Source: Candidatus Omnitrophota bacterium (lineage in GTDB: Bacteria; Omnitrophota; Gorgyraeia; Gygaellales; Profunditerraquicolaceae). Taken from it: 64,000 bases of DNA. Location: assembly GCA_041651115.1 (NCBI GenBank), contig JBAZJY010000002.1, forward strand, positions 414,855-478,854, given 5' to 3'. The position numbers and the translations under genes were made by a program. The notes below the pieces were generated by a model. It worked only from the letters and a program-made list of their open reading frames with translations. It was not told where the DNA came from and searched no databases. Position 1 is the first letter of the stretch, and the number at the start of each line of letters is the position of its first letter. Below are positions 1 to 54,094 of the stretch, in pieces.

Positions 1-1205
1 GCATCGGAGTGATCAGCGCGATAGACGAACAGCCGATCTGCGTGCATTCAAAATTCGGGCCGTTTGCGCTGGTGACTAACGGTTTCATTGAAAATGCCGA
101 TAAGCTGGCAGAGCAGCTCTATAAGGAAGGGCAATCGTTCAGCGAAGTAACCAACGGCAAAGTAAATCAAACCGAATTAGTAGCCAAATTAATTATTCGC
201 GGCAAGTCGTTCATTGAAGGTATTGAGGAAATGTTCCCGCTTATCGAAGGTTCTTGTTCACTTTTGTTATTGAGTAAAGACGGGATCTGCGCGGCAAGGG
301 ACAGGCTTGGCTATTCGCCTCTGATAATCGGGGAAAGATCAGGCGAATGGGCAGTAACTACAGAAAGCTCAGCTTTTCTTAACCTCGGGTTTAAGGTGGT
401 AAAAGATATCCAGCCGGGCGAGATCGTTTCATTAAACGAAGCAGGATTAAAGCCGCGCTGTAAGGGAAAAGGAAAGGCTGCTTGTCAAATTTGTTCTTTT
501 CTTTGGATCTATACCGGGTTTCCGGCTTCTTCATATGAAGGGATCAACGTAGAAATGGCAAGGGAAAGAAGCGGCTGTTGCCTTGCTAAAAACGACGATG
601 TTAAGGCAGACATGGTTTCCGGCATTCCTGATTCAGGCACTGCCCATGCCATCGGTTATGCAATGTGCTCGGATATCCCCTTGCGCCGGCCTTTAGTGAA
701 ATATACTCCCGGCTATGACCGCAGCTATACGCCGCCTTCGCAGGAAAAGCGCGACTTGATCGCGAAAATGAAATTGATCCCGGTGCCGGATATCATTAAC
801 GGCAAGCGGATCGTATTTTGCGACGATTCCATTGTCCGCGGCACGCAACTTAAAAATTATACTATTCAGAAGCTGCGCGATTGCGGGGCAAAAGAGATTC
901 ATTTACGGATCGCCTGCCCGCCGCTGATGTTCCCCTGTAAATTTAATTATTCCACGCGCAGCTTAAATGAGCTGGCAGCGCGTAAAGCAATCCGGGCGAT
1001 CGAGGGTAAGGACATTGATGATATCGGCGGGTACCTGAAAGAAGGATCAGCCCAATACAAAAAGATGGTAGAATGGATCTCTAGGGATATCGGTGTTACC
1101 ACCCTGAGATTCCAGAAACTAGCAGATATGATAAAATCTTTAGGCATGCAAAGAGAACAACTCTGCCTTTATTGCTGGACAGGCGAGGAAAAGAACGGAG
1201 CTTAA
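1..1205 (+). CDS. Amidophosphoribosyltransferase-like paralogue (divergent PurF-like; 5' end cut by the window edge)
   Basis: The frame of ORF 9..1205 stays open back to base 1. The C-terminal PRTase region (GIPDSGTAHAIGYA, CDDSIVRGTQ, EIHLRIACPPLMFPC, CLYCWTG) parallels the canonical PurF downstream, but the N-domain is divergent. Confidence 0.6.
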   Translation, partial: IGVISAIDEQPICVHSKFGPFALVTNGFIENADKLAEQLYKEGQSFSEVTNGKVNQTELVAKLIIRGKSFIEGIEEMFPLIEGSCSLLLLSKDGICAARDRLGYSPLIIGERSGEWAVTTESSAFLNLGFKVVKDIQPGEIVSLNEAGLKPRCKGKGKAACQICSFLWIYTGFPASSYEGINVEMARERSGCCLAKNDDVKADMVSGIPDSGTAHAIGYAMCSDIPLRRPLVKYTPGYDRSYTPPSQEKRDLIAKMKLIPVPDIINGKRIVFCDDSIVRGTQLKNYTIQKLRDCGAKEIHLRIACPPLMFPCKFNYSTRSLNELAARKAIRAIEGKDIDDIGGYLKEGSAQYKKMVEWISRDIGVTTLRFQKLADMIKSLGMQREQLCLYCWTGEEKNGA

Positions 1206-4532: not shown

Positions 4533-4542
4533 GTCGTTCTTT

Positions 4543-4765
4543 TACAATTTTGTGTCTACCTTGTCTTGTTTCTCGCAGGGACGCTCGCCCCGCCCAGCGT
4601 GCGGGGCTTCGTCCTACGCTATCGCGTAGGACTACGCACTACCTGTATAAGAGGAGCTTCGCTCGGGAGTCGGCTTTCGCTCTGCCCTAACGTAAGTGAG
4701 GGCAACCTTGCCCGCTCAAGCCTCCTACGCCCTGCTCAAAACAAGACAAGTTATCCACAAAATTG
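4543..4765. repeat. Family-C structured repeat, copy 1 (about 223 nt; imperfect terminal inverted repeats of about 38 bp, caattttgtg...cttgtcttgttt / aaacaagacaag...cacaaaattg)
   Basis: A near-identical core (ctcgcagggacgctcgccccgcccagcgtgcggggcttcg...ctcgggagtcggctttcgctctgccct...gcccgctcaagcctcctacgccctgctcaaaaca) recurs at 35417..35590. This copy carries an extra 46-nt hairpin insert (tcctacgctatcgcgtaggact...). It is intergenic between the SPFH gene and purD. Confidence 0.8.
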
Positions 4766-4805
4766 ATAACGGAATTAATGTTATATCTGTAAGTTAAGAT
4801 TTTAA

Positions 4806-14983: not shown

Positions 14984-15498
14984 TGCTTAACCGCGAAGAG
15001 ATCGAGAAATTAATACAGGAGATAAAGCTGGTAGACGGCTATATGGACGCTGCTGTCCAGTTGACGCCTAATGGTTTTGACTTGACTGCCGCCAGTATTT
15101 TTGAATTTATCGGCCAGGGAAGCGTTGATTTTTCCAATAAGGAGAGGCAGCTTCCGGAATGCCGTGAGGTTGAGGCGCAAAAAGCAAGCCCGCAGGATAA
15201 ATTCGGCTGGTGGCATCTAAGGCCCGGGGTTTATAAAGTAAAAACTAACGAAGCCGTGAACCTGCCGCAGGACCTTATCGCGCTGGCATTTACGCGCACT
15301 TCGCTTCTAAGGGCAGGCGCCTTTACCCAACACGGCGTCTGGGACGCGGGTTTTAAAGGCAAGGGCGAATTTATCTTAAGCGTGCAAAACCCGGCCGGCC
15401 TGAAATTGAAACAGAATGCCCGGGTGGCACAGCTGGTATTTTTGAAGATCAACGAAACTAACCACAGCTATAAGGGGATCTACCAAAACTTAGTTTAA
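14983..15498 (+). CDS. dCTP deaminase/dUTPase-superfamily protein (Dcd-like)
   Basis: Dcd-like motifs RTSLLRAGAF...WDAGFKGKGEFILSVQN...ARVAQLVF; 171 aa. Confidence 0.65.
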   Translation: MLNREEIEKLIQEIKLVDGYMDAAVQLTPNGFDLTAASIFEFIGQGSVDFSNKERQLPECREVEAQKASPQDKFGWWHLRPGVYKVKTNEAVNLPQDLIALAFTRTSLLRAGAFTQHGVWDAGFKGKGEFILSVQNPAGLKLKQNARVAQLVFLKINETNHSYKGIYQNLV

Positions 15499-15612
15499 AG
15501 GTTAAGGTTAAGAAGCCAGTATGGTAAATTAGGTTAGGGTTAAGTATTAATGACCTAACCTTAACCTCTAATCCATACTGGCATCCTGACCCTAACCTAA
15601 TAACTTAACCGA
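15499..15612. repeat. Family-A palindromic intergenic repeat, copy 1 (about 115 nt; ggttaaggttaagaagccagtatggt ... ccatactggcatcct ... aacc)
   Basis: Nested inverted repeats. Two more copies lie at 37641..37762 and 53977..54094, all intergenic and in the same orientation. Confidence 0.85.
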
Positions 15613-15621
15613 TAAATTACG

Positions 15622-16548
15622 ATGGTTATCAGAGGCGTAGAAATTAAAGTTGTAAAAGCCGATATTACCGAATTAAAAGCCGATGCCATTGTCAATGCCG
15701 CAAATAATAAGCTGGTGATGGGCGGAGGGGTTGCCGGCGCCATCCGCAAAAAAGGCGGCAAGGAGATTGAAGAAGAGGCAATTGAGCAGGGCCCGATCAA
15801 GGTCGGCGATGCGGTTGCTACCCCGGCAGGAAGCTTGCCGGCTAAATTCGTCATTCATGCGGCAACCATGGGTATGGATTTTAAGACAGATGAGGTTAAG
15901 GTCAGGGCCGCGGCAAAAAGTGCGCTTTTGCTTGCTGAAAAATTAAAGCTGAAATCAATTGTTTTTCCGGCATTAGGCTGCGGCACCGGAGGGTTTTCTT
16001 TGCTGGCTGCTGCCAAGATCATGGCGCAGGAGGCATTCAGGGTGATCCGGCAGGGCAAGACCTGTTTAAAAGAAATAATCTTTTGCCTTTACGATCAGGA
16101 AGCCGTTGATACTTTTAATACCGGGGTGATTAAATATCTTGAACACATCACCGGTGAATTGCAGAACGGGCCGTTCGCTACGGTTGACGCGATCATTGAG
16201 ATTGACGCGGGAATAGTGATCATTAAAAGAAGCAATCCGCCGTTTGGCTGGGCGCTTCCCGGAGGTTTTCTTGATTTTGGGGAAAAATTAGAAGATGCGG
16301 TTGTGCGGGAGGCAAAAGAAGAGACCGGCCTGGATATTTACGACGTAAAACAATTCCATACCTATTCAGATCCCCGGCGCGATCCGCGCTTCCATACCAT
16401 TGCTACGGTTTTTACTGCCAAGGCAAAAGGCAAGCCCAGAGCAGGCGATGATGCTGCCGCGCTTAAGATCATTACGCAAAAAGATCTACCCAATATAGAG
16501 TTTGCCTTTGATCATAAGCAAATCTTACAGGATTATTTTCAGGTTTAG
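15622..16548 (+). CDS. Macro domain (ADP-ribose/Appr-1''-p processing) fused to a NUDIX hydrolase
   Basis: N-terminal macro motifs ([22 protein letters not shown]). The C-terminal half has a Nudix box ([23 protein letters not shown]). Confidence 0.85.
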
Positions 16549-16622
16549 GGACGGTTTTCAGCCAAGATTAAAAGTATCCCCTTCGGGGCACACTTTTTTC
16601 TTGGACTGAGAACCGTCCCTAT
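16548..16622. repeat. Family-B hairpin repeat, copy 1 (TAGGGACGGTT...AACCGTCCCTA arms; an internal small GC hairpin plus T-run terminator)
   Basis: gggacggttttcagccaag / cttggactgagaaccgtccc arms enclose tatccccttcggggcacactttttt. The left arm begins in the stop codon of the macro-NUDIX gene, as copy 2 at 19465 does with its upstream gene. Confidence 0.75.
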
Positions 16623-16659: not shown

Positions 16660-16807
16660 GTAAATTAGTTACTCACTGATAAAGGCAAACCCGGAGTAAT
16701 CCGGGGACGCAAAGCCAAGGGTCCTTTGAAAAAAGGACAGCCGGTTGCCAAAGGGGTAGAAGAGTCCGACTTTTATGAACCCTAAAGGCTAACCTTTAGG
16801 GTTTTTT
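16660..16807 (+). ncRNA. Candidate small RNA (about 150 nt) bounded by its own promoter and an intrinsic terminator, class unknown
   Basis: There is no ORF over 20 codons on the plus strand. Internal hairpins are cccggagtaatccggg and gtcctttgaaaaaaggac; it ends in gaaccctaaaggctaacctttagggtttttt. It lies between convergent genes. Confidence 0.45.
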
Positions 16808-16976: not shown

Positions 16977-18854
16977 TCATCCTTCGCGCAGCTGCTTCTC
17001 GGCGTCTACGACATCGCGGTTAATGACCCTAATCGTTTCTTTTATCCTGTCTTTGAGGATATAAGAAACGACTTTGGCTTCATGGATCTCCCGCAATATC
17101 TGTATGCTCATCCGGAAATAGCGCACGACTTCACCTTCGTCGGTATCCGTAGCCTGCAGCGTCTTGTCAAAGCTCGTACCCCTTAGCCATGTCTCCACCG
17201 TATTGCTTAAATGAAAATACGGTTCTTTGCTAAAAGAATAAATGTGGAATTTGGTTTCTTTTTCTTTGATCTTGGCGTAAGTTTCCTCACAGATCCTTTT
17301 TACGTGGCGCATCGCCTTTGAGATATGCGGCGGCCGCTGGTTTTTCCGCGGTTCAAACACGCAGGCAGTAGTGACTACGCCCAATCCGAATTCATCCAGT
17401 TGCTCCAGCATTCCTGCCGCGTAAAGCTCTGAAAGTAAAAGCTCATATCCGTATATTGTCTTTGCGAATTCTCCCTTTTGCGAAAGCTCGCCGTTTTCTA
17501 TGTAACCCATATTTTTCAGGAGATTGAGTTTTGCCTCAATAAGGCGCAGCGCGTCTTTTTGCTCGTGCGGCTTTGACTGGTAATAATGCAAGGACAAGGG
17601 ATAGATCTTAAAAAGGTCATCTTTGTGTTTTTCATAAAGGTTAAGTATAGTCGCGTATGAGTTGTTGAGCTGGCTCTTGACTTCTTCGGGATTTGAATAA
17701 ATTATGCGTTTTACGTCGTCAGCCTGGACGCGGCTTAAATTAACGCGGGAATAAACAAAGCCTTCTTTATCAATGCCGCGCCTGCCTGCGCGTCCGGCCA
17801 TTTGGTAAAAATCACGGGTTTTTAAATTCCGCACGTAGCGGCCGTAAAATTTCCTTAATTCGTCAAAGATCACCGAGCGGCTGGGCATATTTATGCCAAG
17901 GGCAAAGGTTTCGGTGGTAAAGATCACTTTTAAGAGCCGGCTGGTAAAAAGCCGCTCTACGACTTCTTTTAAAGTCGGCAGCATCCCGGCATGATGATAG
18001 GCGATTCCCCGGCGGATAAGCGGGAACATATTCTGCGTGGTGCGGTCGTGTTTTAGGTCAAAGCGTTCGCAAAGGTCGTTGAACATTCGGATGATCTGTT
18101 TTTCTTCTTCGGGTTCAAGAAAATCAAAGCCGTGCATTTCAAAGGCGAGGTCTTCTGCGCGGCGCCTGCCAAAGACAAAATAAATACAGGGTAGGCCTTC
18201 TCTTTGGCGCAGGTAGTTTATCAGCATGCTTAATTTATTCGGCTTTGTTCCGCGCAGCCTCTTTAATATATGTACGTTATCCACGACTTCATTCTGGCAT
18301 TGGAAGAAGAAATGCAAGGGTACCGGCCGCTTATCTTCAATTACTACTTTTACCGGCTTGTTGTGGATAGACTCTATCCAGCCGGCGAACTGTTTGATGT
18401 TGGGAATAGTTGCGGAAAGCCCGAGCATGTTCATATGTTTAGGTAGAAAGATCAGGGATTCTTCCCAGACTGTGCCGCGCTCGTAGTTATCAATGTAATG
18501 GATCTCGTCAAAAATGATCCAGGAATACTGCTTGAGGCTGTCCGGTTCATCAAGCACTTTATTGCGGAAGATCTCCGTGGTCATGATCAGGACCGGCGCG
18601 TAAGGGTTGATTGAAACGTCGCCGGTGAGGATCCCGATATTATCTTTGAACTGGCCCTGGAAATCGCGGAATTTCTGGTTGGAAAGCGCCTTGATCGGCG
18701 CGGTATAGATCACCCCGCGCTGGTTCTCAATGCTGGTAGCGATGATATGCTCGGCAATCGCGGTTTTCCCGGCTCCGGTAGGTGCGGAAACGATCACGGA
18801 AAACCCCTGGTTGATGTAGTCGATTGCTTCCTGCTGGAACCGATCGTAGATCAT
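16977..18854 (-). CDS. Ski2/HelY-like DExH-box superfamily-2 helicase
   Basis: 625 aa. Motifs I (APTGAGKT), II (DEIH) and a SAT-like motif, then the helicase C-domain (QMAGRAGRRG) and a C-terminal Ski2-type DSHCT-like region. It is the only large minus-strand gene. Confidence 0.8.
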   Translation of the reverse strand: MIYDRFQQEAIDYINQGFSVIVSAPTGAGKTAIAEHIIATSIENQRGVIYTAPIKALSNQKFRDFQGQFKDNIGILTGDVSINPYAPVLIMTTEIFRNKVLDEPDSLKQYSWIIFDEIHYIDNYERGTVWEESLIFLPKHMNMLGLSATIPNIKQFAGWIESIHNKPVKVVIEDKRPVPLHFFFQCQNEVVDNVHILKRLRGTKPNKLSMLINYLRQREGLPCIYFVFGRRRAEDLAFEMHGFDFLEPEEEKQIIRMFNDLCERFDLKHDRTTQNMFPLIRRGIAYHHAGMLPTLKEVVERLFTSRLLKVIFTTETFALGINMPSRSVIFDELRKFYGRYVRNLKTRDFYQMAGRAGRRGIDKEGFVYSRVNLSRVQADDVKRIIYSNPEEVKSQLNNSYATILNLYEKHKDDLFKIYPLSLHYYQSKPHEQKDALRLIEAKLNLLKNMGYIENGELSQKGEFAKTIYGYELLLSELYAAGMLEQLDEFGLGVVTTACVFEPRKNQRPPHISKAMRHVKRICEETYAKIKEKETKFHIYSFSKEPYFHLSNTVETWLRGTSFDKTLQATDTDEGEVVRYFRMSIQILREIHEAKVVSYILKDRIKETIRVINRDVVDAEKQLREG

Positions 18855-18914: not shown

Positions 18915-19466
18915 ATGGGTTATGATATCGCCATAAATAAGTCGTGGGAAAGCCTGCTGGCGCTTAAACCAGCGGCCAGGCTTTCCGTAAAGCTGCTCGC
19001 CGATGAGTACGACATAGATATTGTCGGCAGGCGGGTGCTTTCGCTTTCCTGCAATGCTCCGGCAAAAGATTATACGGCAATATTGCTGTTGCATTATCTT
19101 GCTCAGAAAATAAAAGGATTGCCGCCCATTTCCGGGGAATGGCTGGATTTTAAAGAGCTTTCCGGAGTTGAGGGCTATCAGGATGCATTCCGTAAAAGGG
19201 TGATCGAACGGATAATCAGGAAATACGGCAGCCAGCCGGATTCTTTGTATTCTGTGCTTGAAAGGTTTCCCGGCAAAAAATCCGGCCAGGCAGATGTAAG
19301 CATCATTTTAGACGTATTCGAAGCTGTGCCTGCGCTGATCGAGCTATGGAAAGCAGATGAGGAATTCAGTCCCGAGGCAAATTTACTTTTTGACCGGAGT
19401 ATTACAAAGATATTCTGCACGGAAGATATTGTAGTCTTGGCGGAATTGATTGCTAATTATGTTTAG
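18915..19466 (+). CDS. Hypothetical protein (possibly DUF3786-like)
   Basis: 183-aa ORF; family assignment is from memory only and is weak. Confidence 0.4.
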   Translation: MGYDIAINKSWESLLALKPAARLSVKLLADEYDIDIVGRRVLSLSCNAPAKDYTAILLLHYLAQKIKGLPPISGEWLDFKELSGVEGYQDAFRKRVIERIIRKYGSQPDSLYSVLERFPGKKSGQADVSIILDVFEAVPALIELWKADEEFSPEANLLFDRSITKIFCTEDIVVLAELIANYV

Positions 19467-19543
19467 GGACGGTTCTGGGCCAAAGCGAAAAGTGTCCCTA
19501 AAAGCAGGGCATTTTTCCCTTTGTCCGCAGAACCGTCCCTAAT
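19465..19543. repeat. Family-B hairpin repeat, copy 2
   Basis: tagggacggttctgggccaaag ... ccgcagaaccgtcccta. It again starts in the stop codon (gtttag) of the upstream gene. Confidence 0.75.
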
Positions 19544-35395: not shown

Positions 35396-35416
35396 TTTAT
35401 AACTAATTATGTATTT

Positions 35417-35590
35417 CTATTTTGCGTCTGCCTTGTCTTGTTTCTCGCAGGGACGCTCGCCCCGCCCAGCGTGCGGGGCTTCGCTCGGGAGTCGGCTTTC
35501 GCTCTGCCCTAGCGCATACTCGGGCAACCGTGCCCGCTCAAGCCTCCTACGCCCTGCTCAAAACAAAACAAATCAGCCGCAAAATTATAT
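35417..35590. repeat. Family-C structured repeat, copy 2 (about 175 nt)
   Basis: It shares the core and TIR-like ends with 4543..4765 but lacks the 46-nt insert. It is intergenic between GT9 genes. Confidence 0.8.
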
Positions 35591-35600
35591 GGCATAACAT

Positions 35601-37640
35601 ATGGAGGACATTAAGAAAATATTATTCATTACTTTAAGCAACATCGGTGATGTTGTGTTGACCTTGCCGGCGCTGGACCATTTGCGGCAGAAGTTCCCGT
35701 CGGCAAAGGTCTCGGTGATGTGCGGCCAGCGGGCAAGGGAAATATTTGAAGGTGCTCCTTTTATTGAGGAAACGGTCATTTTTGATAAACACGCGGCGTT
35801 AAAAGAAAAAATAAGGCTGTTCAAAGCCTTAAAAGCCAAGAAGTTTGACGCCGTGATCGACCTGCGCAATTCTTTGTTCGGTTTGGGCCTGCCGGCAAAA
35901 TACAAGGTCCCGGTTTTGCGAAAACTTCCTGCGGGTTTGGCGCATATGAAGGATAAGCACTTGTATAAAGTAGCGGGAAAGCAGGCTGCAGATAGCCTGC
36001 GGCATTCGCTTTATATCTCTGCCGCTGATGAAGACTGCGTCGGCCGGATATTAAAGGACAGCCATATTGCTGTCGATGACAGATTGATAGTTATTGCGCC
36101 GGGAAGCCGCAGTCACACCAAGAAATGGGCTAAGGAAAAATTTGTGGAGTTGATTAATCTATTGGCTGGCGAAACAGGGGTAAAAATAGTATTAGCCGGA
36201 GATAAAGCTGATTTGGATACTGCCGATTATATTGCCGCTGCCTGCGGGGCAAAGGCGATAAACCTCTGCGGAAAAACTAATTTGCGCGAGCTCGCCTGCC
36301 TTTTAAAAAGATCAACGCTGCTAGTGACTAATGACAGCGCAGCCTTGCACATAGCGGGTTATTTAGATATCCCGGTTGTCGCGGTATTCGGCATAACCAA
36401 TGAAGTTAAGTATGGCCCGTGGTCACAGAGGCGCGCAGTGGTCAAAAGGGATATTTTCTGCCGGCCATGTGAAAAGGCGCAGTGCAGATTTGGTACTTTG
36501 AAATGTATGCAGCTGATAAAAGTGGAAGACGTATTAAGAGCAGCTAAAGAACTCTTATTCCAGCACCCAGCACCTAACACCAAACACCTGAAACCTGATT
36601 TCCGGCGTATACTTGTTGTGCGCACAGACAGGATCGGCGATGTGCTCCTTTCCACGCCTGTGTTTAAGGCGTTGCGGCAAGCCTATCCGAGCGCTTATAT
36701 TGCCGCGATGGTCAGCCCCTACGCTAAAGAGATCGTTGAAGGCAATCCTTATATTGACGACGTCATAATCTACGATAAAGATTTTAAGCACCGGAGCTGG
36801 AGCAGGTCAATGAAATTCGCTTCCCGGCTGCGTAAAAAGCATTTTGACCTGGCGCTTATCCTGCATCCTATAAACCGCAGCCACCTGATCGCCTTCTTTG
36901 CCGGCATAAAAAGAAGGATCGGTTTTGACAGGAAGCTGGCCTTTTTGCTTACCGATAAAATAAAACACGTTAAGCAGGAAGGAGATAGGCATGAATTGGA
37001 ATATACGCTTGACCTCGTAAGATACTTAGGCATTGAACCGCAGGATAAACAGCCGTTCATGCCGTTAAAGCCTGATTCGGAAAAGTGGGCTGATGAATTG
37101 TTCAGCCGTGAGTCCTTGACAGCGCAGGATAGGTTGTTGGCGATAAATCCCGCTGCCAGCTGCCCGTCTAAGATCTGGCCGGCAGAAAGGTTTGCCGAAA
37201 CAGCGGATAAACTGGCGGATAAATACGGCTTTAAGGTATTGATCTTTTCCGGGCCGAAAGATACAAAATTAGCGGAAACAGTCTTAGGCCATATGCAACA
37301 CCGGGTGATCAACCTTGCGGGAAAAACATCCGTCAGCCAGCTTGCCAGCGCGTTAAAGCGGTGCAGCCTGTTTATTTCCAATGATTCCGGGCCGGTGCAT
37401 ATTGCCGCGGCCGTGGGAGTGCCGGTGATCTCCATTTTCGGCAGGAACCAGAAGGGTTTGAGCCCGAAAAGATGGGGGCCGGTGGGGCCCCTGGATATTA
37501 TTTTGCACCGGCAGGCAGGATGCATCGAATGCCTGGCGCATAATTGCCTGAAAGATTTTGCCTGTTTAAAGTTGATCAAGGTTGACGACGTTGTTAAGGC
37601 AGCAGATACTATCTTGGAAGCACGTAGAGATCATGGTTAA
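35601..37640 (+). CDS. Tandem double GT9 heptosyltransferase (two complete GT9 modules in one 679-aa protein)
   Basis: Module 1 is ILFITLSNIGDVVLTLPAL...DSAALHIAG...CRPC. Module 2 is ILVVRTDRIGDVLLSTPVF...DSGPVHIAAAVG...CIEC. Confidence 0.82.
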   Translation: MEDIKKILFITLSNIGDVVLTLPALDHLRQKFPSAKVSVMCGQRAREIFEGAPFIEETVIFDKHAALKEKIRLFKALKAKKFDAVIDLRNSLFGLGLPAKYKVPVLRKLPAGLAHMKDKHLYKVAGKQAADSLRHSLYISAADEDCVGRILKDSHIAVDDRLIVIAPGSRSHTKKWAKEKFVELINLLAGETGVKIVLAGDKADLDTADYIAAACGAKAINLCGKTNLRELACLLKRSTLLVTNDSAALHIAGYLDIPVVAVFGITNEVKYGPWSQRRAVVKRDIFCRPCEKAQCRFGTLKCMQLIKVEDVLRAAKELLFQHPAPNTKHLKPDFRRILVVRTDRIGDVLLSTPVFKALRQAYPSAYIAAMVSPYAKEIVEGNPYIDDVIIYDKDFKHRSWSRSMKFASRLRKKHFDLALILHPINRSHLIAFFAGIKRRIGFDRKLAFLLTDKIKHVKQEGDRHELEYTLDLVRYLGIEPQDKQPFMPLKPDSEKWADELFSRESLTAQDRLLAINPAASCPSKIWPAERFAETADKLADKYGFKVLIFSGPKDTKLAETVLGHMQHRVINLAGKTSVSQLASALKRCSLFISNDSGPVHIAAAVGVPVISIFGRNQKGLSPKRWGPVGPLDIILHRQAGCIECLAHNCLKDFACLKLIKVDDVVKAADTILEARRDHG

Positions 37641-37762
37641 GTTATTGGGTTAAGGTTAAGAAGCCAGTATGGTAGTTAGGTTAGGGTTAAGTATTAATGA
37701 CCTAACCATAACCTTTAAACCATACCGGCATCCTAGCCCTAACCTTAACCATAACCTAACTA
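37641..37762. repeat. Family-A palindromic intergenic repeat, copy 2
   Basis: gttattgggttaaggttaagaagccagtatggt...ccataccggcatcct...aaccttaacc. Confidence 0.85.
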
Positions 37763-37766
37763 AAAA

Positions 37767-38744
37767 ATGAAGAAGATATTATTGATTCTTGCCTTATTTT
37801 TCTACTTTTCTCCCTGTCTTGCTGCGGACTTTGGCGCTTCGGATATGAAGAAGATATCCGACGAGCTTAAACGCGACCGGCAGGAGATGGAAAGGACCCG
37901 TCAGGCAATGAAGCAGGCAGAATGGGAAAAAAGACAGGTCGATGACGCCATAAAACGCCAGCGCGATGAGGCAAAACAATTACAGCGGCAGCTGGAAGAA
38001 GAAAAGCGCAGCGAACTTGCCAGGAGAAAGGCTGAAGAGGTCCGCAAGCCGAACAAATTCGTTGAGTTTATTGCCAGCTGGCCGGTACAATTCGCGTTTT
38101 ATTTCCTGGTCTTTGCCGGGTTCGGCACGCTGCTTTACTTTAAGGTCCTGGCGCCGCGTAAGAAGCCGGCTGAAGAAGAGCCTACCATTGAAGAGATAGG
38201 GCCGGATGTTTTGGCGGCAGCGACTCATTGGAGGTTCCGGGAAAAGGACTTTAAGAAATACCAGATGAAGCTTTCCGCTTTGGCCGATGCCAAAGTTATC
38301 GACGTGGATTCCGCGGAATTCAAAAAATATTTTATCCGGGATATGGTCATGACGGAGATCCTTTTTCAGGCTGCCGTGAGCAGGAAACTTGACAGCGATG
38401 CGGTATTTTTGGCCGAACTGAACAAGTATAAAGATTACGTATCGGGCTTAAATAAAGAAGGCGCGGCTTTTTTGAAATTATTGAATGATTATAAATCAAG
38501 TTTTGTCCCTGCCGCAGGCCAAAGGCCCGCCTATGCCGCTTATTATAAAGGCTTTTTGGACCTGCTCATGATCTTAAATGCTAACGAGGAGACCGAAATA
38601 TTTGAATTATACGAGAGGTTCCTTTTGATAAATAAGCTCGCCGGCTCAGGCGACGCTGCCGCCATGCAGCATGCGCTTGACGTCATCATCAATGAATTTA
38701 AATTAGCGCACAACGTGATCATCAAAGAGGAGGCTGCGGCATAG
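37767..38744 (+). CDS. Hypothetical signal-peptide protein with a periplasmic R/E/Q-rich coiled coil, one TM helix and a cytoplasmic helical domain
   Basis: 325 aa; signal MKKILLILALFFYFSPCLA; TM at FAFYFLVFAGFGTLLYF. I recognise no family. Confidence 0.5.
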   Translation: MKKILLILALFFYFSPCLAADFGASDMKKISDELKRDRQEMERTRQAMKQAEWEKRQVDDAIKRQRDEAKQLQRQLEEEKRSELARRKAEEVRKPNKFVEFIASWPVQFAFYFLVFAGFGTLLYFKVLAPRKKPAEEEPTIEEIGPDVLAAATHWRFREKDFKKYQMKLSALADAKVIDVDSAEFKKYFIRDMVMTEILFQAAVSRKLDSDAVFLAELNKYKDYVSGLNKEGAAFLKLLNDYKSSFVPAAGQRPAYAAYYKGFLDLLMILNANEETEIFELYERFLLINKLAGSGDAAAMQHALDVIINEFKLAHNVIIKEEAAA

Positions 38745-38749
38745 CATCC

Positions 38750-40108
38750 ATGGAAAAAAGATCAGTCTCTTTGATTTTGCCGATGTTTAACGAGAAAGAA
38801 TACCTGGAAAAAACGGTTTCCACGGTCATTTCGGTTTTAGAGCCGTCATTCCCGGACTTTGAAGTAATCGTGGTTGATGACGCCAGTAACGACGGATCCG
38901 GGATGGTCGCCGAGCGGCTGGCTGCCGGGGACAGCCGGATCAGGGTCATTCATCATAAGAAAAACCGTAAGCTGGGCGGAGTTTTAAAGACCGGGTTTTC
39001 CGCGGCTTCAAAAGAGATCGTGGTCTATACGGATATGGATATGCCGTTTGATTTGTCGCAGTTAAGCGCGGTAATCCCCCTGGTTTTTGACTCCGATATA
39101 GTAATCGGCTGCCGTATAGGTAAAAGAGAGTCCTTCCTGCGCGTAGTTTATTCCTGGGCATACAATAAGTTGATAAATGTCATATTTAAGACCCGGGTCA
39201 AAGATGTGAATTTTGCCTTAAAAATATTTAAAAGAAAAATTTTAAACGAGATTAAACTGAAGTCCGAAGGCTCGTTCATAAATGCCGAATTCCTGGCGAA
39301 AGCACGAAAGCTTGGATACTCGATAAAAGAGGTAGAAATTGATTACACGCCGCGGACCTACGGTATTTCCCGGTTGTCCACGCCGCCGGTTATATGTAAA
39401 GTATTATACGAGATCGTAAAGTTTTATCCTGAGATCATCCGGTTCTCTAAAAAAAAGGCGATCTATGGCAGGCTGCGTGATTTTTATAAAAATGCCGGGC
39501 GCAAGGCAAAAATCTATAATTTCCTGCGTTTTAAGACCTGCCCTTTTGACAAGATAGAAAAATTCATCCCGAAGACAGGCAGTATATTGGATTTGGGATG
39601 CGGCACGGGCCTCTTGCTTAATACTTTGCGGCTGGAACAGGACAAACGGGCATTATTTGGTTTTGACCGGGACGCAAGAAAAATTGGGATTGCCGCGATC
39701 AGCCTGAATGAAAGCAGGGACATAGTTTTTAAAAAAGCGGACATTAGCGGCAGCAGCCTTGATTTGCCTAAAGCCAGCGCCATTATCTTAACGGATGTCA
39801 TGTATTGCCTGGATCATGAGAAAAAAATTGGCCTGTTGGAAAAATGTTTTACTGCGTTAGATGCCGGCGGCACGCTGCTGATCAAGGATATTGATAGAAG
39901 CTTCAATATAAAGTTTTTCTGGGCCTTCCTGCAGGAGTTCCTGGCGGTAAAAATCTTCGGCCTGACTTCTGCCGACGGGATTTATTTTGAAAATAAAAAG
40001 CAGTACCTTTCACTCCTGAAAAAAAGCGGTTTTATCGCTAATCAGTATTTTGACCTGAGCAAAGGGTATTTCTATCCTCATATTCTATATGCCGGAAAAA
40101 AACCGTAG
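38750..40108 (+). CDS. GT2-family glycosyltransferase (HpnI/ArnC-like, polyprenyl-phosphate sugar transferase type) fused to a class-I SAM-dependent methyltransferase domain
   Basis: N: SLILPMFNEKEYL, VVDDASNDGS, YTDMD. C: ILDLGCGTGLL (motif I) and LLIKDID. Confidence 0.75.
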   Translation: MEKRSVSLILPMFNEKEYLEKTVSTVISVLEPSFPDFEVIVVDDASNDGSGMVAERLAAGDSRIRVIHHKKNRKLGGVLKTGFSAASKEIVVYTDMDMPFDLSQLSAVIPLVFDSDIVIGCRIGKRESFLRVVYSWAYNKLINVIFKTRVKDVNFALKIFKRKILNEIKLKSEGSFINAEFLAKARKLGYSIKEVEIDYTPRTYGISRLSTPPVICKVLYEIVKFYPEIIRFSKKKAIYGRLRDFYKNAGRKAKIYNFLRFKTCPFDKIEKFIPKTGSILDLGCGTGLLLNTLRLEQDKRALFGFDRDARKIGIAAISLNESRDIVFKKADISGSSLDLPKASAIILTDVMYCLDHEKKIGLLEKCFTALDAGGTLLIKDIDRSFNIKFFWAFLQEFLAVKIFGLTSADGIYFENKKQYLSLLKKSGFIANQYFDLSKGYFYPHILYAGKKP

Positions 40109-41525
40109 AAAAATACTCTTTATCAATCCTCCCTTAAGCATAAATCAACGTTATGGAATGTTGGGGCAAGCCGGGGGCAGCGAACCTCCCCTGGGTTTAT
40201 GCTATTTGGCTGCCGCGGTGAGAAAAGAAGGTTTTACAGCCGGAATAATTGATGCGCAGGCGCAAAGACTCGGGTTAAAAGAAACAATGGAGCTGATTAA
40301 GGCCTTTGAGCCGTGTTATGTAGGCATTACGGCTTCGACAATGGCCATAGAAAGCGCTGCGGCCTTGGCGCGGGATATAAAAGTGTCGGACCCCGGCATT
40401 AAAATTATAATCGGCGGCTGCCATATCAGCTCTTTACCCGCGGAAACTTTTGCTGAATACAAATTTTTTGATATCGGGGTAATCGGTGAAGGGGAGGATA
40501 CGGTCCGGGAGCTGCTCTTGGCCCTGGAGAACAATATGGGCTTAAAAGATATCAAGGGTATCGCCATAAGAGAAAACGGGAGTGTTTATTTATCGTTGCC
40601 GCGGCCAAGGATAAAAGACCTGGACAGTTTAGCCTATCCTGCTTTTGATCTGCTGCCTGACATACGCAGATTCTATAGGTTACCGGCGCAAAGTTTGGCT
40701 GATAGCCGCAGTTTTTCGTTAGTCACTTCCCGCGGCTGCATGGGAAAGTGTTCTTTTTGCGACAAAAAAGTTTTTGGAAATTATATAAGCATGCACAGTG
40801 CTGAATATATAACAGAAATGATTCGCATCTTAAATCAGGATTACAAAATAACCAATATAATGTTTGAGGACGATAATTTTATGGCCTCCAGGCAAAGGCT
40901 GAAGGACATAGCCGATTTAATGGCTAAAAAAAAGCTTAAGACCCGCTGTACGGTTTTAGCGCGGATGGATAACGTAGACGAAGAATCGTTAAAAATATTA
41001 AAAGGCATGGGTTGCTGGCAGATATCATACGGCATTGAAAGCGGCTCCCAAAGGATTTTAGATTTTTATAATAAAGGGATTACTGTCCAGCAAATAAGAA
41101 ACGTGGCAGGATTGACCAAAAGCGCCGGTTTAAAAGTTAAATGCTTTTTTATCTGGGGTAACCCAACGGAAGACCGGGAATCCATCAGGGAAACCGCTGA
41201 TCTTGTAAAAAATTCCGGTGTTGATGATATTTCGGTAACTTTCTTTACGCCTTTTCCCGGCTCAGAGATATGGCCGGATATAAGATCTTACGGGGATTTT
41301 GATAAAAACTGGGAAAAAATGAGCTGTTTTGAATTGGTTTTTAGGCCTTACGGGTTGGAAAAAGAATATTTAATCAACAGCAGGAAAAAAATCTTGAGAG
41401 ATTTTTATTTTCGGCCTAAACTTATATTTTCTTATTTGATCCGTATCAGATCGCTGGCGCAACTTAAAGAACTGATTTTAAGCGCCTATTGTTTGTTCCG
41501 TTATATATTAAAAGGGGTGGAATGA
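40089..41525 (+). CDS. B12-binding-domain radical SAM protein (class B; HpnJ-like)
   Basis: The N-terminal cobalamin-binding Rossmann-like region is followed by CMGKCSFC (CX3CX2C); 478 aa. Confidence 0.8.
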   Translation: MPEKNRRKILFINPPLSINQRYGMLGQAGGSEPPLGLCYLAAAVRKEGFTAGIIDAQAQRLGLKETMELIKAFEPCYVGITASTMAIESAAALARDIKVSDPGIKIIIGGCHISSLPAETFAEYKFFDIGVIGEGEDTVRELLLALENNMGLKDIKGIAIRENGSVYLSLPRPRIKDLDSLAYPAFDLLPDIRRFYRLPAQSLADSRSFSLVTSRGCMGKCSFCDKKVFGNYISMHSAEYITEMIRILNQDYKITNIMFEDDNFMASRQRLKDIADLMAKKKLKTRCTVLARMDNVDEESLKILKGMGCWQISYGIESGSQRILDFYNKGITVQQIRNVAGLTKSAGLKVKCFFIWGNPTEDRESIRETADLVKNSGVDDISVTFFTPFPGSEIWPDIRSYGDFDKNWEKMSCFELVFRPYGLEKEYLINSRKKILRDFYFRPKLIFSYLIRIRSLAQLKELILSAYCLFRYILKGVE

Positions 41526-42340
41526 GCAGGTCTTTAATCGTCAATGCCGATGATTTCGGTTTAGATAACCGGATAAACCAGGGTATAGCCGAATGCTGCT
41601 CAAGCGGGATCGTCAGGAGCATCTCGCTTGTTGCCAACGGCCCGGCATTTGAGCATGCCTTAAGCCTGGCCCGGCAAATGCCGGATACCGGCATCGGAGT
41701 GCATTTATGTTTAGTCAATGAAAAACCGCTTCTGGCCGGCATGGCCGGCCAGAACGGGTTGCTGCCGCAGGATTGTTACCGTTTATTTTTTAAGCTCTGC
41801 AGCCGGCGCTTGAACCTTTTGGATGTAGAACAGGAACTTGACGCGCAGATAAAAAAAATTTTGGACAGCGGCATAACGCCTACGCACCTTGATAGCCATC
41901 AGTATACGCATCTGATCCCTGCGATATTTGATATTGTGATGCGGCTGGGAAAGAAGTATAATATTAAATGGATACGCTGCCCGCGGGGGTGGAGGCGGGC
42001 CCGCGGCGCATCATCCGCAGACCTTTTTAAAAAAACATATCTGGCATTGTTTTCCCGCCGGCGGATAGAAGCGCTAAAAGGCAACGGCTTTCGCTGCGCC
42101 GATATTTCTTTTGGTTTTACCGGCAGTGGCCGGCTTAGTGAACAGGCGGTAAGGGAATTTTTGCAGAGATTTGGCTCCGGCATGGCGGATCTGGCTTGCC
42201 ATCCGGGATATTTACCGCAAAGCGGCAAGTACCGCGCATGGGGCTATTGCTGGGAAGAAGAAGCCGCGGTCCTTAAAAGCAAGGGCATAAGAACATTGAT
42301 TGAAAAATTGAATATTAGCCTTACCAACTATGCAGCTTAA
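41522..42340 (+). CDS. YdjC/ChbG-family carbohydrate deacetylase (HpnK-like)
   Basis: LIVNADDFGL...THLDSHQYTH pattern. The start ATG at 41522 overlaps the preceding stop. Confidence 0.75.
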   Translation: MSRSLIVNADDFGLDNRINQGIAECCSSGIVRSISLVANGPAFEHALSLARQMPDTGIGVHLCLVNEKPLLAGMAGQNGLLPQDCYRLFFKLCSRRLNLLDVEQELDAQIKKILDSGITPTHLDSHQYTHLIPAIFDIVMRLGKKYNIKWIRCPRGWRRARGASSADLFKKTYLALFSRRRIEALKGNGFRCADISFGFTGSGRLSEQAVREFLQRFGSGMADLACHPGYLPQSGKYRAWGYCWEEEAAVLKSKGIRTLIEKLNISLTNYAA

Positions 42341-44528
42341 AAAGACATTCTCTTTTTTTCATCTGTTTTTGCTCTTTCTGCTGATCGTATTTTACGGGGT
42401 GAACAATTATATTTGGCTGCATTTAAATCGTTATCCTTTTGTGGATGACGAGGCAGTGCATTTGATCTCCGCAACGCGCTATATGGAGACCCTTTCCCGG
42501 CCCGGCGCGGATATGTTTTCGGCGTTAGCCGGCGTGGACAAGCTTTACCCGCCGTTTTTCCCGTTTATAGCCTCTCTTTTTGGCCTTGCCTTTGGAGGCG
42601 GGGCTGTCAGTATTATCTTATCCAATCTCTTATTTTTATTCGGTATATTCGTTTGCCTGTATTTTATCGGATTAAAAATGGGCGACGCAAGGCTCGGGCT
42701 CCTGGCAGCGCTGATACTGTCGCTGTACCCGATGATTTTCCAGCTTGGCCGCATGTGCATGCTGGAAACCGCGTTAACTTTTACTGTAGTTGCCGCTGTC
42801 ACGGCAATGATCTATTCCGATGGCTTTAAAAGAACGAAGCCGAGCGCCCTGTTTGGGCTGATTTTCGGGCTGGGCGTCCTGACAAAACAAAGCTATGTGG
42901 TGTTGATCATCGGCCCTTTGCTGCTTATCGCGGGAGTTTCCCTTTTTAAGGGGAGTTGGCAGGACAGGAGGAGGGTGGCCGGTAATTTACTTTTATCTTT
43001 TGTAATAGGGGCAGCTGTTGCCTCTTTGTGGTATGTGCCGAATTTTAAGACAATGTTGCCTCTGGCCATAGCCGCGGCTACCGATTCGGCTTTAGTGCCG
43101 TATAACATACCGGTTTTTTCCTTCTGGTCATTTTCCTTCTACTTACGTTCGCTGGTCAACGAACAGATACTCTTTTTCTTCTTTGTGCTGCTCTTAATGG
43201 CAACCCCCGTATTTTTTAAACGGAAAAAAGATGAATTTTTCTTTCTGTTCCTCGTTTGGATCATAGTTACCTATCTTATCCGGACTTTCATCGGCAATAA
43301 ATTCCTTTATTATACTGTATCTTGCCTTCCTGCCGTGGCGCTGGTCACGGCCTGCGGCATTATGAATATGAAAAAGGATTCTTTAAGGAAGATAATAATC
43401 TGGCTTATCTTTATCGTCGGGTTTGCTCAGTATTTCCTGATTTCCTATATCCACTACGGCCATGTCAGTCTGCACATGGCTTTTCATACCGGGACCGAAA
43501 AAGACAAAAGCAGGATGTTGGATATTTTCCTGTTTCCCGGAACAGAGATCCTTGCGGGGGTAAAACATTTTCCCCGGGGCGGAAACTTCAAGCGCCTGGA
43601 GCTGGTCAACGCCATATTAAAGGGATCGCGCGGTATCATGCCGAAGATCGGGGTTTTTGGTTTTGACCCCAATTTGGAAAATAAGAAAGACCCCGGTAAA
43701 TCCGTGATCATGACCAAGCTTGATAGTTATGCCGGAGCCAATTTTGACGGCCTGAATTATTATTTATTGTCGCAGAAGATATCTTATAAGATTTTTCCGT
43801 TGAATTCCGATCTGGACATGAGGGTAAATTTTATCGTTACGCCGATCGAGCTGGAAAAGATAGACTCCGCCGATTTTAAAATTCCCATCCGGGATTTTGT
43901 GCCGGTAGAAGAATTTGCCATGCCGGATACCAGCAGCGTTTATCTATACCGGCTCAGCAAGGTAACCCCGTTTATCCTCAATTATACCCCGCAGCTTTCA
44001 CCGGAATATAAAATGTCCAGCGCCCGGATCGATATCCACAGCGCAGACATGAAATTTGCGTTTAAGGATGTTAAAAGCAACGGCGTAGCCCAGGTTGCCG
44101 AGTGGCTGCCGGAAAAAGATTGGACGAAAAGCTGGATTACGCAAATGGAACTGGTCAGTAATATGTGGCAGCAGCTGTGGATAGAATTTGTGCCGCTTGA
44201 ATCGGGTGATATGTATATACAGTTCAGGGGATCGTTTTATCCGGATAATGAATCCAACCACCATGAAGTTTATGTTGATGACGTAGCCATAGAAGGCAAG
44301 GGGCTGAAGATCGTAAACGGCAGCTTTGAAGAGCAGAACTATCTCGGTAGTCCTTTAACTTGGGATTTGCCCGTGGCATCATCCAGCCAAACTACGGAGT
44401 TGGCACGCAGCGGAAGGTGCTCGGTTCTTATTTGGCATGACAGCCCGCTGGTAAAGAAAATACCCGTAAAGGCAGGGGTGAAATACCGCCTTAGCGCGTG
44501 GTTCAAACCGTATAATCCGGTAGAATAA
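42330..44528 (+). CDS. ArnT/PMT-like (GT39/GT83) polytopic membrane glycosyltransferase with a C-terminal periplasmic beta-rich (CBM-like) domain
   Basis: About 11 predicted TM helices. A conserved acidic loop motif YPFVDDEAVHLISATRYME follows TM1. The C-terminal roughly 250 aa are soluble. Confidence 0.7.
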   Translation: MQLKKTFSFFHLFLLFLLIVFYGVNNYIWLHLNRYPFVDDEAVHLISATRYMETLSRPGADMFSALAGVDKLYPPFFPFIASLFGLAFGGGAVSIILSNLLFLFGIFVCLYFIGLKMGDARLGLLAALILSLYPMIFQLGRMCMLETALTFTVVAAVTAMIYSDGFKRTKPSALFGLIFGLGVLTKQSYVVLIIGPLLLIAGVSLFKGSWQDRRRVAGNLLLSFVIGAAVASLWYVPNFKTMLPLAIAAATDSALVPYNIPVFSFWSFSFYLRSLVNEQILFFFFVLLLMATPVFFKRKKDEFFFLFLVWIIVTYLIRTFIGNKFLYYTVSCLPAVALVTACGIMNMKKDSLRKIIIWLIFIVGFAQYFLISYIHYGHVSLHMAFHTGTEKDKSRMLDIFLFPGTEILAGVKHFPRGGNFKRLELVNAILKGSRGIMPKIGVFGFDPNLENKKDPGKSVIMTKLDSYAGANFDGLNYYLLSQKISYKIFPLNSDLDMRVNFIVTPIELEKIDSADFKIPIRDFVPVEEFAMPDTSSVYLYRLSKVTPFILNYTPQLSPEYKMSSARIDIHSADMKFAFKDVKSNGVAQVAEWLPEKDWTKSWITQMELVSNMWQQLWIEFVPLESGDMYIQFRGSFYPDNESNHHEVYVDDVAIEGKGLKIVNGSFEEQNYLGSPLTWDLPVASSSQTTELARSGRCSVLIWHDSPLVKKIPVKAGVKYRLSAWFKPYNPVE

Positions 44529-44580
44529 ATAGGGACAGACACTATTTTTCTGTAGAAAAATAGTGTCTGTCCCTATTTAT
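44529..44580 (+). terminator. Perfect 22-bp palindrome followed by a T-rich run (terminator of the LPS-core operon)
   Basis: aatagggacagacactatttttctgtagaaaaatagtgtctgtccctatttatttttc. Confidence 0.7.
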
Positions 44581-44638
44581 TTTTCTCCTATTTTTCGTTT
44601 GCTAAAGCCACTAATTTATGATAAACTGACATCTTCGT

Positions 44639-52808: not shown

Positions 52809-53945
52809 ATGAAAAAGAATTATTTATTGACTCCCGGGCCAACGCCTTTGCCGCCGGAGGTTTGTGAGGCGCAAGCGCGTCCGATCATTCATCACCGCAC
52901 CCCGCAGTTCCAGGCGGTATTAAAAGAGGTCACCGAGGGCCTGAAATATATTTTTCAGACTTCCGGGGACGTATTGATCCTGACTTCTTCCGGTACGGGC
53001 GCGATGGAAGCCGCGGTAGTCAATTTATTATCTGCCGGTGATACGGCGATCACCGTTGAAGGCGGAAAATTCGGCGAGAGATGGACCGAACTCTGCGCTG
53101 CCTACGGCGTTAAGGCAGAGGTAATCAAGGTAGAATGGGGCAAAGCAGTTGACCCCAAGGAAATCGAGAAAAAATTAAAAGCCAATCCCGCCATTAAGGC
53201 GGTATTTACCACTTTGTGCGAAACCTCTACCGGCGTGGCTAACGATATTGAAGCGATCGGCAAAGTCGTAAAAGATTCTGATGCGGTCCTGGTAGTGGAC
53301 GCGATCAGCGGCTTAGGCGCGATCGACCTGAAGACCGACGCCTGGCTGGTTGATGTCTGCGTTTCCGGATCGCAGAAAGGCCTGATGCTTCCGCCGGGCC
53401 TGGCATTTGTTTCGGTGAGTAAAAAGGCCTGGGCAAAAGTTGACGCCTCCAAAAGCCCGAAATATTATTTTAATTTGAAAGCGGCAAAAAAAGCCGCAGA
53501 GAAGACCGATACGACATTTACTCCGGCGATCTCGCTGGTGATGGCTTTGGCTGAAGCTTTGAAGCTGATGCGCGCGGATTCACTGGAAAATATCTTTAGC
53601 CGGCACGCGAAAATGGCGCAAGCCACGCGAGCGGCAATGCAGGCATTGGGTTTGGCATTATTCGCGCCGGATGCCGCTTCCGACGTAGTTACGGCAGTAA
53701 AAGTGCCGGAAGGCATAGACGGCGAAAAATTAGTCAAGACCATGCGCGATACTTACGGCGTAACCATTGCCGGCGGACAGTCGGAAATGAAGGGCAAGAT
53801 ATTCCGTATCGCGCATATGGGCTATATCGGTGAATTTGATATTATTATGGGTATTTCCTGCTTGGAAAAAGTCCTTAAGCAGATGGGTTATAAGTTTGAA
53901 CTCGGCGCCGGCATCAAGGCCGCAGAGGAAGTGTTCTTAAAGTAA
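52809..53945 (+). CDS. Class-V aminotransferase (phosphoserine / serine-pyruvate aminotransferase type)
   Basis: LTPGPTPLPPEV N-terminus and a PLP-lysine region (SGSQKGLMLPPGL). It sits upstream of serA. Confidence 0.75.
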   Translation: MKKNYLLTPGPTPLPPEVCEAQARPIIHHRTPQFQAVLKEVTEGLKYIFQTSGDVLILTSSGTGAMEAAVVNLLSAGDTAITVEGGKFGERWTELCAAYGVKAEVIKVEWGKAVDPKEIEKKLKANPAIKAVFTTLCETSTGVANDIEAIGKVVKDSDAVLVVDAISGLGAIDLKTDAWLVDVCVSGSQKGLMLPPGLAFVSVSKKAWAKVDASKSPKYYFNLKAAKKAAEKTDTTFTPAISLVMALAEALKLMRADSLENIFSRHAKMAQATRAAMQALGLALFAPDAASDVVTAVKVPEGIDGEKLVKTMRDTYGVTIAGGQSEMKGKIFRIAHMGYIGEFDIIMGISCLEKVLKQMGYKFELGAGIKAAEEVFLK

Positions 53946-53976
53946 AAAGAGACGCTTATTAATATTTGATACCTTT

Positions 53977-54094
53977 GGTTAAGTTATTGGGTTAAGGTTA
54001 AGAAGCCAGTATGGTGGGTAGGTTATGGTTGAGTATCAACGACCTAACCTTAACCCTTAAACCATACCGGCATCCTAACCATAACCATAACCAA
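53977..54094. repeat. Family-A palindromic intergenic repeat, copy 3
   Basis: ggttaagttattgggttaaggttaagaagccagtatggt...ccataccggcatcctaacc. Confidence 0.85.

Follow-up and report, generated by a model that had tools for sequence, protein, structure and literature searches.

Three intergenic hairpins on an Omnitrophota contig as probable gene-less miniatures of a palindromic element resembling rRNA intervening sequences

Introduction

Three similar palindromes of about 115 nt stand at three gene junctions of a Candidatus Omnitrophota contig, and the question raised by this locus is what kind of element they are and how they came to these junctions. The window, by which we mean the whole stretch of 64,000 nt that was analyzed here (contig JBAZJY010000002.1, positions 414,855 to 478,854 of the forward strand), contains the three copies, which are referred to as c1, c2 and c3. 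An earlier note on this DNA regarded them as REP/BIME- or MITE-like repeats that could act as terminators, mRNA stabilizers or recombination sites; the link to the rRNA intervening sequences (IVSs) and to a four-helix-bundle protein, which is described below, is absent from that first reading.

Intervening sequences of rRNA have been known since 1990. Those bearing an ORF are found in Leptospira, Coxiella, Brucella and in the 16S and 23S rRNA of the CPR, and those without an ORF are found in Salmonella and other Enterobacteriaceae. The IVS of Coxiella, with a length of 428-444 nt, is closed by a terminal stem of 28 bp, contains an S23p/PF05635 ORF and is excised by RNase III; a suspicion of long standing is that it is a mobile element and that the ORF helps it to move (PMC4990558). 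For rRNA IVSs in general, the origin, the mobility and the function of PF05635 have been open questions since the early 1990s (PMC4990558). ORFs of the 23S_rRNA_IVP type are present in insertions of CPR 16S and 23S rRNA (PMC11270868), and the PF05635 structure 2GSC resembles that of Avd, 4DWL (PMC10053308). The results given below indicate that c1-c3 are probably miniatures, without an ORF, of a selfish palindromic element of the IVS type, with MITE-like behavior.

The three copies and their fold

In a repeat search of the window, c1, c2 and c3 were obtained as one direct-repeat family at 15487-15604, 37634-37751 and 53976-54093. The three-way alignment has a mean column identity of 80%, and the identity between c2 and c3 is 91%. 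A profile of family members (nhmmer) gives the three copies 106-120 bits on the plus strand and 75-80 bits on the minus strand. The 16-mer AAGAAGCCAGTATGGT has three exact occurrences in the window, where the chance expectation is 0.45 with up to three mismatches, and its imperfect complement also occurs three times, in the other arm. The three same-orientation copies of the earlier note were recovered as such, with bounds, as read from the sequence (15499-15610, 37635-37760 and 53977-54092), that differ by a few bases from the earlier ones. The profile search gave no further copy in the window, in the adjoining 10 kb on each side (L139, L140) or in an 82% relative, of which 21 kb were searched.

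Copy c1 extends over 15487..15610 on the plus strand, where a degenerate outer arm (15487-15498), which overlaps the last codons and the stop of dcd, precedes the core hairpin (15499-15610). The conserved 5' arm core at 15506..15524 (+) is GGTTAAGAAGCCAGTATGG; the inner hairpin at 15531..15567 (+) consists of AGGTTAGGGTTAAG, the loop TATTAATG and ACCTAACCTTAACCT; and the 3' arm core at 15573..15591 (-), with the reverse complement GGTCAGGATGCCAGTATGG, has two mismatches relative to the 5' arm core. Copy c2 (37635..37760, +) is supported by alignment, repeat search, fold and profile. Its 5' arm core lies at 37654..37672 (+), as given by the 16-mer match and the profile, and its 3' arm core at 37720..37738 (-), where the reverse complement is GGCTAGGATGCCGGTATGG. 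Copy c3 (53977..54092, +), which lies between the serC-like gene and serA, is supported by alignment, repeat search, fold and profile, with a 5' arm core at 53996..54014 (+; 16-mer match and profile) and a 3' arm core at 54062..54080 (-; reverse complement GGTTAGGATGCCGGTATGG).

In the computed fold, each copy forms the long imperfect hairpin with an inner hairpin that had been described before, at a minimum free energy of -50 to -63 kcal/mol. The z-scores range from -5.6 to -8.5, and none of 200 shuffled sequences was as stable on either strand. The fold of the window copies is more stable on the minus strand than on the plus strand because A.C mismatches turn into G.U pairs there. No PF05635 ORF was found in the window, and c1-c3 themselves are without an ORF.

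Gene junctions and empty sites in relatives

All three copies follow a stop codon, as stated in the earlier note, each in its own manner. The core of c1 abuts the stop of dcd (15496-15498), starting on the first base past it, and the Macro/NUDIX gene downstream starts at 15622. Copy c2 contains the stop of the double-GT9 gene, whose last codon and TAA stop (37638-37640) are the first GGTTAA of the element, and the next gene starts at 37767. Copy c3 lies 31 nt past the stop of the serC-like gene (53943-53945), is flanked on each side by about 30 nt of extra sequence that does not belong to the family, and is followed by the serA start at 54137. The end of the c2 element thus supplies the stop codon of the upstream gene, and probably the same is the case for c1. 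The genes after c1 and c2 start 11 and 6 nt past the element, with no recognizable Shine-Dalgarno sequence (15611-15624 and 37761-37769), and serA, downstream of c3, retains GGAGG.

The spacing of the same gene pairs in relatives differs clearly from that in the window. The serC-serA spacer is 191 nt here, as against 14 nt in L021 (93% amino-acid identity of serC) and 22 nt in L022 (91%), and the two genes overlap in L019 (82%; alignment A2 in all three cases); the gene coordinates of five contigs of 90% relatives give 27 nt. The dcd-macro spacer is 123 nt here, as against a 4-nt gene overlap in an 89% relative (gene coordinates), and it is 44 nt, without the element, in the 79% relative L138. 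The gap from the GT9 gene to the next gene is 126 nt here and 24 nt in 90% relatives, where the latter value was taken from gene coordinates and not from DNA. Because these orthologous junctions are empty in the relatives, c1-c3 are recent, lineage-specific insertions at tight operon junctions, which postdate the split from relatives with 79-93% identical flanking proteins. A distance of 120-190 nt now separates gene pairs that appear to have overlapped or been tightly coupled before.

The earlier note had held that copies confined to this contig and absent from related genomes would speak against its reading. Absence at the same sites in relatives is indeed observed, and confinement to the contig is not, since the family is widespread, as described below. 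In view of this wide distribution, the absence at the sites of relatives is a sign of mobility.

No target-site duplication is visible at c1 and c3 when the filled and the empty sites are compared, and neither a target motif nor a duplication could be defined from the three filled/empty comparisons or from the flanks of subfamilies, among which the flanks of the L030 type are repetitive. Insertion into the loops of pre-existing hairpins was considered and is not supported, as the empty sites of L021 and of the 89% relative are too short to contain a hairpin. A contig from another sample, which encodes an identical dcd protein (L002, Logan SRR8542065), ends 30 nt into c1 (2296-2325), as is typical of assemblies at repeats.

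Two further observations concern the surroundings of the copies. Five genes lie right after c2 (37767-44528), up to a perfect palindrome, at a place where the gene coordinates of 90% relatives give a single 344-aa gene between the GT9 and the DS-like/PfkB genes; this region may be an indel of about 6 kb bounded by c2. The assembly that holds L139 (ENA ERZ27247363, contig k141_3108270) has the last gene of the window a second time, on a separate contig of 107 kb, whose end corresponds to about position 57085 of the window. This duplication may be due to two closely related strains in the sample or to an assembly join.

Distribution of the family and conservation of its arms

The distribution of the family was determined by scanning GTDB, with one genome per species, for the exact 19-mer GGTTAAGAAGCCAGTATGG. 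The scan gave 16 loci, which consist of 13 homologous hairpins and 3 chance matches, where about 4 of the latter were expected. The 13 true copies are found in MAGs of Patescibacteria (5 contigs of one bin), Roizmanbacteria (2), Planctomycetales (3), Nitrospiraceae (2) and Omnitrophota (1). These MAGs are labeled as four phyla, the labels being those of the MAG record titles, where binning errors are possible. In the JGI metagenomes, a scan with a slightly degenerate 19-mer gave at least 115 family loci. A phage or plasmid origin was rejected, as viral contigs gave 0 matches and plasmids and phages gave no blastn match.

The conserved part of the element consists of about 25-30 bp in each arm, and the interior is variable. 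The 3' arm, which was not part of the search query, is present downstream in 101 of the 139 copies, where about 4 are expected by chance. Most members were retrieved by the exact 19-mer, so that part of the conservation of this arm follows from the way the copies were selected, and covariation was assessed only outside the query 19-mer. When 61 non-redundant copies were aligned over their arms only, 72.7% of the cells were paired in register, as compared with at most 50% when the partner is slid by 1-3 columns. In these copies, the core has 13 of its 19 positions invariant and paired, and six regularly spaced positions are mismatched in about half of the copies. The outer-stem positions covary, with GC<->UA switches on both sides. 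The pairing of the arms is thus maintained in the family.

Concerning the position of the family relative to genes, 86 of 92 distinct sites are intergenic, and, where the flanks are unambiguous, 24 of 27 sites lie between co-directional genes and only 1 of 27 between convergent genes.

Long forms and the enclosed gene

The interior length of the 139 copies is bimodal, being 25-100 nt in most of them and 419-470 nt in 8. The full-length element has a size of about 0.52 kb and consists of two imperfect inverted arms around one gene, where each arm is composed of a core of about 19 bp, GGTTARGAAGCCRGTATGG, with outer and inner repeats of the GGTTAR type. All eight long interiors hold a PF05635 frame, in either orientation; seven frames are intact (131-141 aa), and that of L025 is interrupted. 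Three of these ORFs were scanned, and they match Pfam PF05635 (23S rRNA-intervening sequence protein; E from 4e-18 to 4e-21), NCBIfam TIGR02436 (four helix bundle protein) and PDB 2gsc. The match of the long-form protein to Avd of the diversity-generating retroelements (DGRs) is weak (NF033474, E 3e-3). The Rfam scan covered the eight long-form loci, where no rRNA was found, and L060, which is the only locus with an rRNA IVS; a primer-motif screen of the other 0.7 Mb or so of loci gave no rRNA motif.

The protein subfamily of the long forms has more than 3,400 cluster representatives, several of which are named from Omnitrophota MAGs. Two more long forms, L141 and L142, were located by protein similarity alone. 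The former is in an NCBI Omnitrophota MAG, between genes of the cdh/acetyl-CoA synthase operon, and the latter comes from the sequencing run that also yielded L002; arms of the family enclose each of the two, GGTCAGGAAGCCAGTATGG...CCAAACCGGCATCTTGACC and GGTAAAGAAACCAGTATAG...CCATACCGGCTTCCTTACC. With these two, all ten gene-bearing forms (seven intact, one interrupted, L141 and L142) carry PF05635.

The long-form ORFs have pS values of 0.62-1.0, which are saturated, pN values of 0.10-0.28 and, where it can be calculated, a dN/dS of 0.04-0.17. The low pN against the saturated pS indicates that the long-form gene is under purifying selection, i.e., that it is maintained. The arm core is identical at 15-19 of 19 positions even in the loci found via the protein alone, and the non-coding arms are better conserved than the synonymous sites of the ORF, which argues that the arms are recognized by their sequence, and not by their shape alone.

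No long form was found in the 84 kb of the host genome that was read. Several candidates for full-length partners were rejected: L013 is a truncated arm beside an unrelated small ORF, and L006 and L018 are forms of about 270 nt with nested hairpins and no gene.

Short forms as deletion derivatives

The relation between the short and the long forms was obtained from alignments. The short forms L030, L108 and L047 match the long form L094 in two stretches, namely its first 100 nt or so, in which the ATG is followed by some 9 codons, and about 95 nt at its end; what they lack is exactly the 385-nt rest of the ORF (alignment A4). Copies c1-c3 can be aligned with L141, the long form from Omnitrophota, at both of its ends, where the outer GTTATTRGG motif is also shared (alignment A7), and with L059, where 44 of 51 positions of the 5' arm region are identical (alignment A5). 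The ATG in the loop of c1 (15550-15552) and c2 (37697-37699) seems to correspond to the start codon of the long form. On these alignments, the short forms read as internal deletions of long forms. Parsimony is the reason for taking deletion of the ORF as the direction of the change, as against a hairpin that existed first and captured an ORF.

Comparison with known elements and rival explanations

The family of c1-c3 resembles the rRNA IVSs in several respects. The terminal inverted repeats pair into a stem of about 28-30 bp, the long versions of about 0.43-0.55 kb hold one PF05635 (S23p/IVP) gene, and the versions of about 100 nt are gene-less. Like the rRNA IVSs, the family is sporadic and apparently horizontally spread (PMC4990558; PMC11270868). 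In contrast to the rRNA IVSs, the family lies between protein-coding genes and not in helices of 16S or 23S rRNA, it is multicopy with many deletion derivatives, and its arms differ in sequence from those of the rRNA IVS at L060. The long-form ORF is under purifying selection, whereas the ORF of the Coxiella IVS has been reported to be decaying (PMC4990558).

The locus L060 has both kinds of element side by side. Its positions 1-633 (-) contain the 5' part of a 16S rRNA gene, which covers only positions 1-201 of the SSU rRNA model, with an insertion of about 430 nt that carries a PF05635 ORF (E 1e-26) 34% identical to that of the c1-c3 family. The arms of this rRNA IVS (GGAGGTGGGAGGTAAGAGGTGAGAAG...) are unrelated to those of the family, of which a short copy is present on the same contig, some 150 nt upstream of the IVS-bearing rRNA gene.

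The long-form protein also belongs to the same four-helix-bundle family as Avd of the DGRs. Unlike the DGRs, the c1-c3 family has no reverse transcriptase, no pair of template and variable repeats and no adenine-specific mutation pattern; DGR-like adenine-specific mutation among the copies was rejected, as the mutation spectra are dominated by transitions.

The description of the copies as MITE-like in the earlier note was right in spirit. As in MITEs, c1-c3 are short, non-coding, multicopy, bounded by inverted repeats, absent at the sites of relatives and apparently deletion derivatives of a longer element; in contrast to MITEs, the parent element encodes no recognizable transposase but only PF05635/TIGR02436. 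An ordinary MITE, whose arms would be the terminal inverted repeats of a DDE-type IS located elsewhere, with the four-helix-bundle gene as passenger cargo, agrees with the inverted arms with a conserved core, the variable interior, the insertion polymorphism and the many non-coding copies, and another cargo, a HEPN-MNT gene pair, adjoins an arm at L072. However, no transposase gene lies between or beside the arms in the 139 copies and the 0.7 Mb or so of loci, the same PF05635 gene, under purifying selection, is found in ten of ten gene-bearing forms, no target-site duplication is visible at c1-c3, and the architecture of a gene within a stem recurs with unrelated arms inside the rRNA gene of L060. 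We therefore regard an ordinary MITE as improbable.

The ERIC/IRU elements, the Correia elements of Neisseria and the palindromic elements of Rickettsia are imperfect palindromes of 100-150 nt, which are intergenic or at gene ends, co-transcribed, polymorphic and derived from longer elements. Copies c1-c3 resemble them in these traits; in contrast to them, no TA or other target duplication was seen at c1-c3, and the family is found in MAGs of several labeled phyla.

A cis-acting RNA selected by the host at the three operon junctions, for instance a terminator, an mRNA stabilizer or a regulatory hairpin, would explain the very stable hairpins, their position exactly at gene junctions and the family-wide conservation of pairing, but the empty sites in the 79-93% relatives speak against it, and it is, as a whole, very unlikely. 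No Rfam family corresponds to the copies: at gathering thresholds, the scan of the whole window gave no match to them, and an E-value scan of the c2 region gave only look-alikes of microRNA precursors, far below threshold. The sole match in the window at gathering thresholds is a c-di-GMP-I-GGC riboswitch aptamer elsewhere, at 16675-16753 (+) (RF03167, 68.4 bits as against a gathering threshold of 59), and the next long ORF past it (16977-18854) is on the opposite strand.

Concerning termination, which was one of the functions proposed earlier, an intrinsic terminator consists of a G+C-rich hairpin with a U-run immediately after it. Past the stems of c1-c3, the sequence is not T-rich, no U-run or terminator-like site is found on any copy, and the prevalence of co-directional neighbors (24/27) also speaks against this role. 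A promoter role was rejected as well, as no such site was predicted on c1-c3. An orientation bias of the element relative to genes, which the earlier note had raised, was not observed at the 92 sites, where the elements at co-directional sites lie in either orientation, 14 vs 10. The family-wide ratio of G.U to A.C is 93:62, while 63:37 is expected for neutrality from the arm composition. There is no strand asymmetry, and therefore no strand is marked as a selected RNA. The minus strand as the functional RNA was rejected for the same near-neutral ratio and because the orientation of the ORF relative to arm type is 5 vs 3.

REP units have a length of 20-40 nt and often occur as clustered inverted pairs. 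Repeats of the REP/BIME type, mobilized by a RAYT (an IS200/IS605-like Y1 transposase), would, like c1-c3, be palindromic, intergenic and multicopy with no target-site duplication seen. The present family differs in the size of its unit (110-125 nt with nested hairpins, not 20-40 nt), in its density of single copies (3 in 84 kb, with no clustered inverted pairs) and in its associated gene, which is PF05635 and not a Y1 transposase. The cognate RAYT suggested earlier as a check was not found between the arms of any of the 139 copies. On the differences in unit, density and gene, the REP/BIME assignment is extremely unlikely.

Integron-like recombination sites are hardly tenable: although c1-c3 are imperfect hairpins with conserved mismatches and the HEPN-MNT pair of L072 stands between direct duplicates of about 100 nt, each with a 5' arm, attC core sites have RYYYAAC ... 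GTTRRRY in that order, in a cassette array beside intI, whereas the arms have GGTTAAG...CTTAACC on both strands (as read from the sequence and not from an attC model), the neighbors are housekeeping operon genes rather than cassettes, and no integrase is found beside any copy.

Proposed origin, movement and significance

The reading of c1-c3 as gene-less miniatures of an IVS-type element suggests the following course of events. Internal deletion of the gene would reduce the element to about 115 nt, namely its two arms with a short hairpin between them. The resulting short copies would be moved in trans by whatever mobilizes the long forms. For this movement, two candidates may be ranked, namely the four-helix-bundle protein acting on the arms in trans, and then an unlinked conventional transposase. 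The former, with the conserved arms as its target, is the favored candidate, although PF05635 is not known to have nuclease, recombinase or transposase activity. A route via a reverse transcriptase is suggested by the homology to Avd (PMC10053308), and the mutation spectra of the copies give no support for it.

After insertion, the copies would be read through within operon transcripts, because the sites lie between co-directional genes and have no terminator features. A transcribed copy would form a hairpin of about 45-50 bp in which 1x1 mismatches recur at regular intervals, and which RNase III, by analogy with the rRNA IVSs, would probably cut. Such a cut would split or destabilize the polycistronic mRNA and uncouple the once-overlapping genes. 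An effect of the copies on mRNA stability or processing is plausible.

In a wider and more tentative view, which we consider somewhat unlikely, the IVS-type elements might form a distinct class of hairpin-ended mobile element, where the PF05635 protein recognizes the folded arms, as DNA or RNA, and drives the movement together with host enzymes. In that case, the rRNA IVSs would be those members of the class whose insertion was tolerated in rRNA helices, and families such as that of c1-c3 would have spread in mRNA spacers across phyla and spawned gene-less miniatures. The c1-c3 family is a far richer system than the single-copy rRNA IVSs for testing protein binding and the movement of the element because it offers hundreds of metagenome copies, selected intact genes, pairs of long and short forms, empty sites and conserved arms. 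The literature found, whose coverage is incomplete, had nothing on IVS-type elements outside rRNA or on miniature derivatives. For annotation, the family accounts for one kind of large hairpin between the genes of Omnitrophota, CPR and further uncultured lineages; such hairpins break assemblies, add new stop codons and separate formerly overlapping genes.

Other hairpins in the window and at family loci

The window contains two further families of hairpins. A second palindromic repeat family is found at 4542-4766 and 35414-35586, with copies of about 225 and 175 nt that are 88-94% alike; they have 36-nt inverted ends (CAATTTTGTGTCTACCTTGTCTTGTTTCTCGCAGGG...), folds of -105 and -76 kcal/mol and a MITE-like look. 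A third hairpin family, at 16546-16621, 19464-19498 and 44524-44581, has TAGGGAC(G/A)G... arms, and its members may be terminators; at 44524-44581, the palindrome is perfect over 28 bp, its loop has only 2 nt, and a T-run comes next.

At the family loci, small palindromes such as CTCGAAGCGAGTCTCAGCGAAGAGTCGCATCGAC and CCCTGCCTGCCGGCAGGCAGG are nested in the arms or interiors of several copies (L064, L078, L085, L088; L027, L127; L040, L050, L099, L112, L131). The copies of the L030 type lie inside outer inverted flanks of low complexity, aaatcccaaattacaaa ... tttgtaatttgggattt. At L072, the reverse-oriented segment 452-1650 holds a toxin-antitoxin-like pair of HEPN (PF05168, E 1e-32) and nucleotidyltransferase (PF01909) genes, where each of the two direct duplicates of about 100 nt that enclose it contains the end of the upstream gene and a 5' arm of the family, and the second duplicate is followed by a truncated PF05635 ORF.
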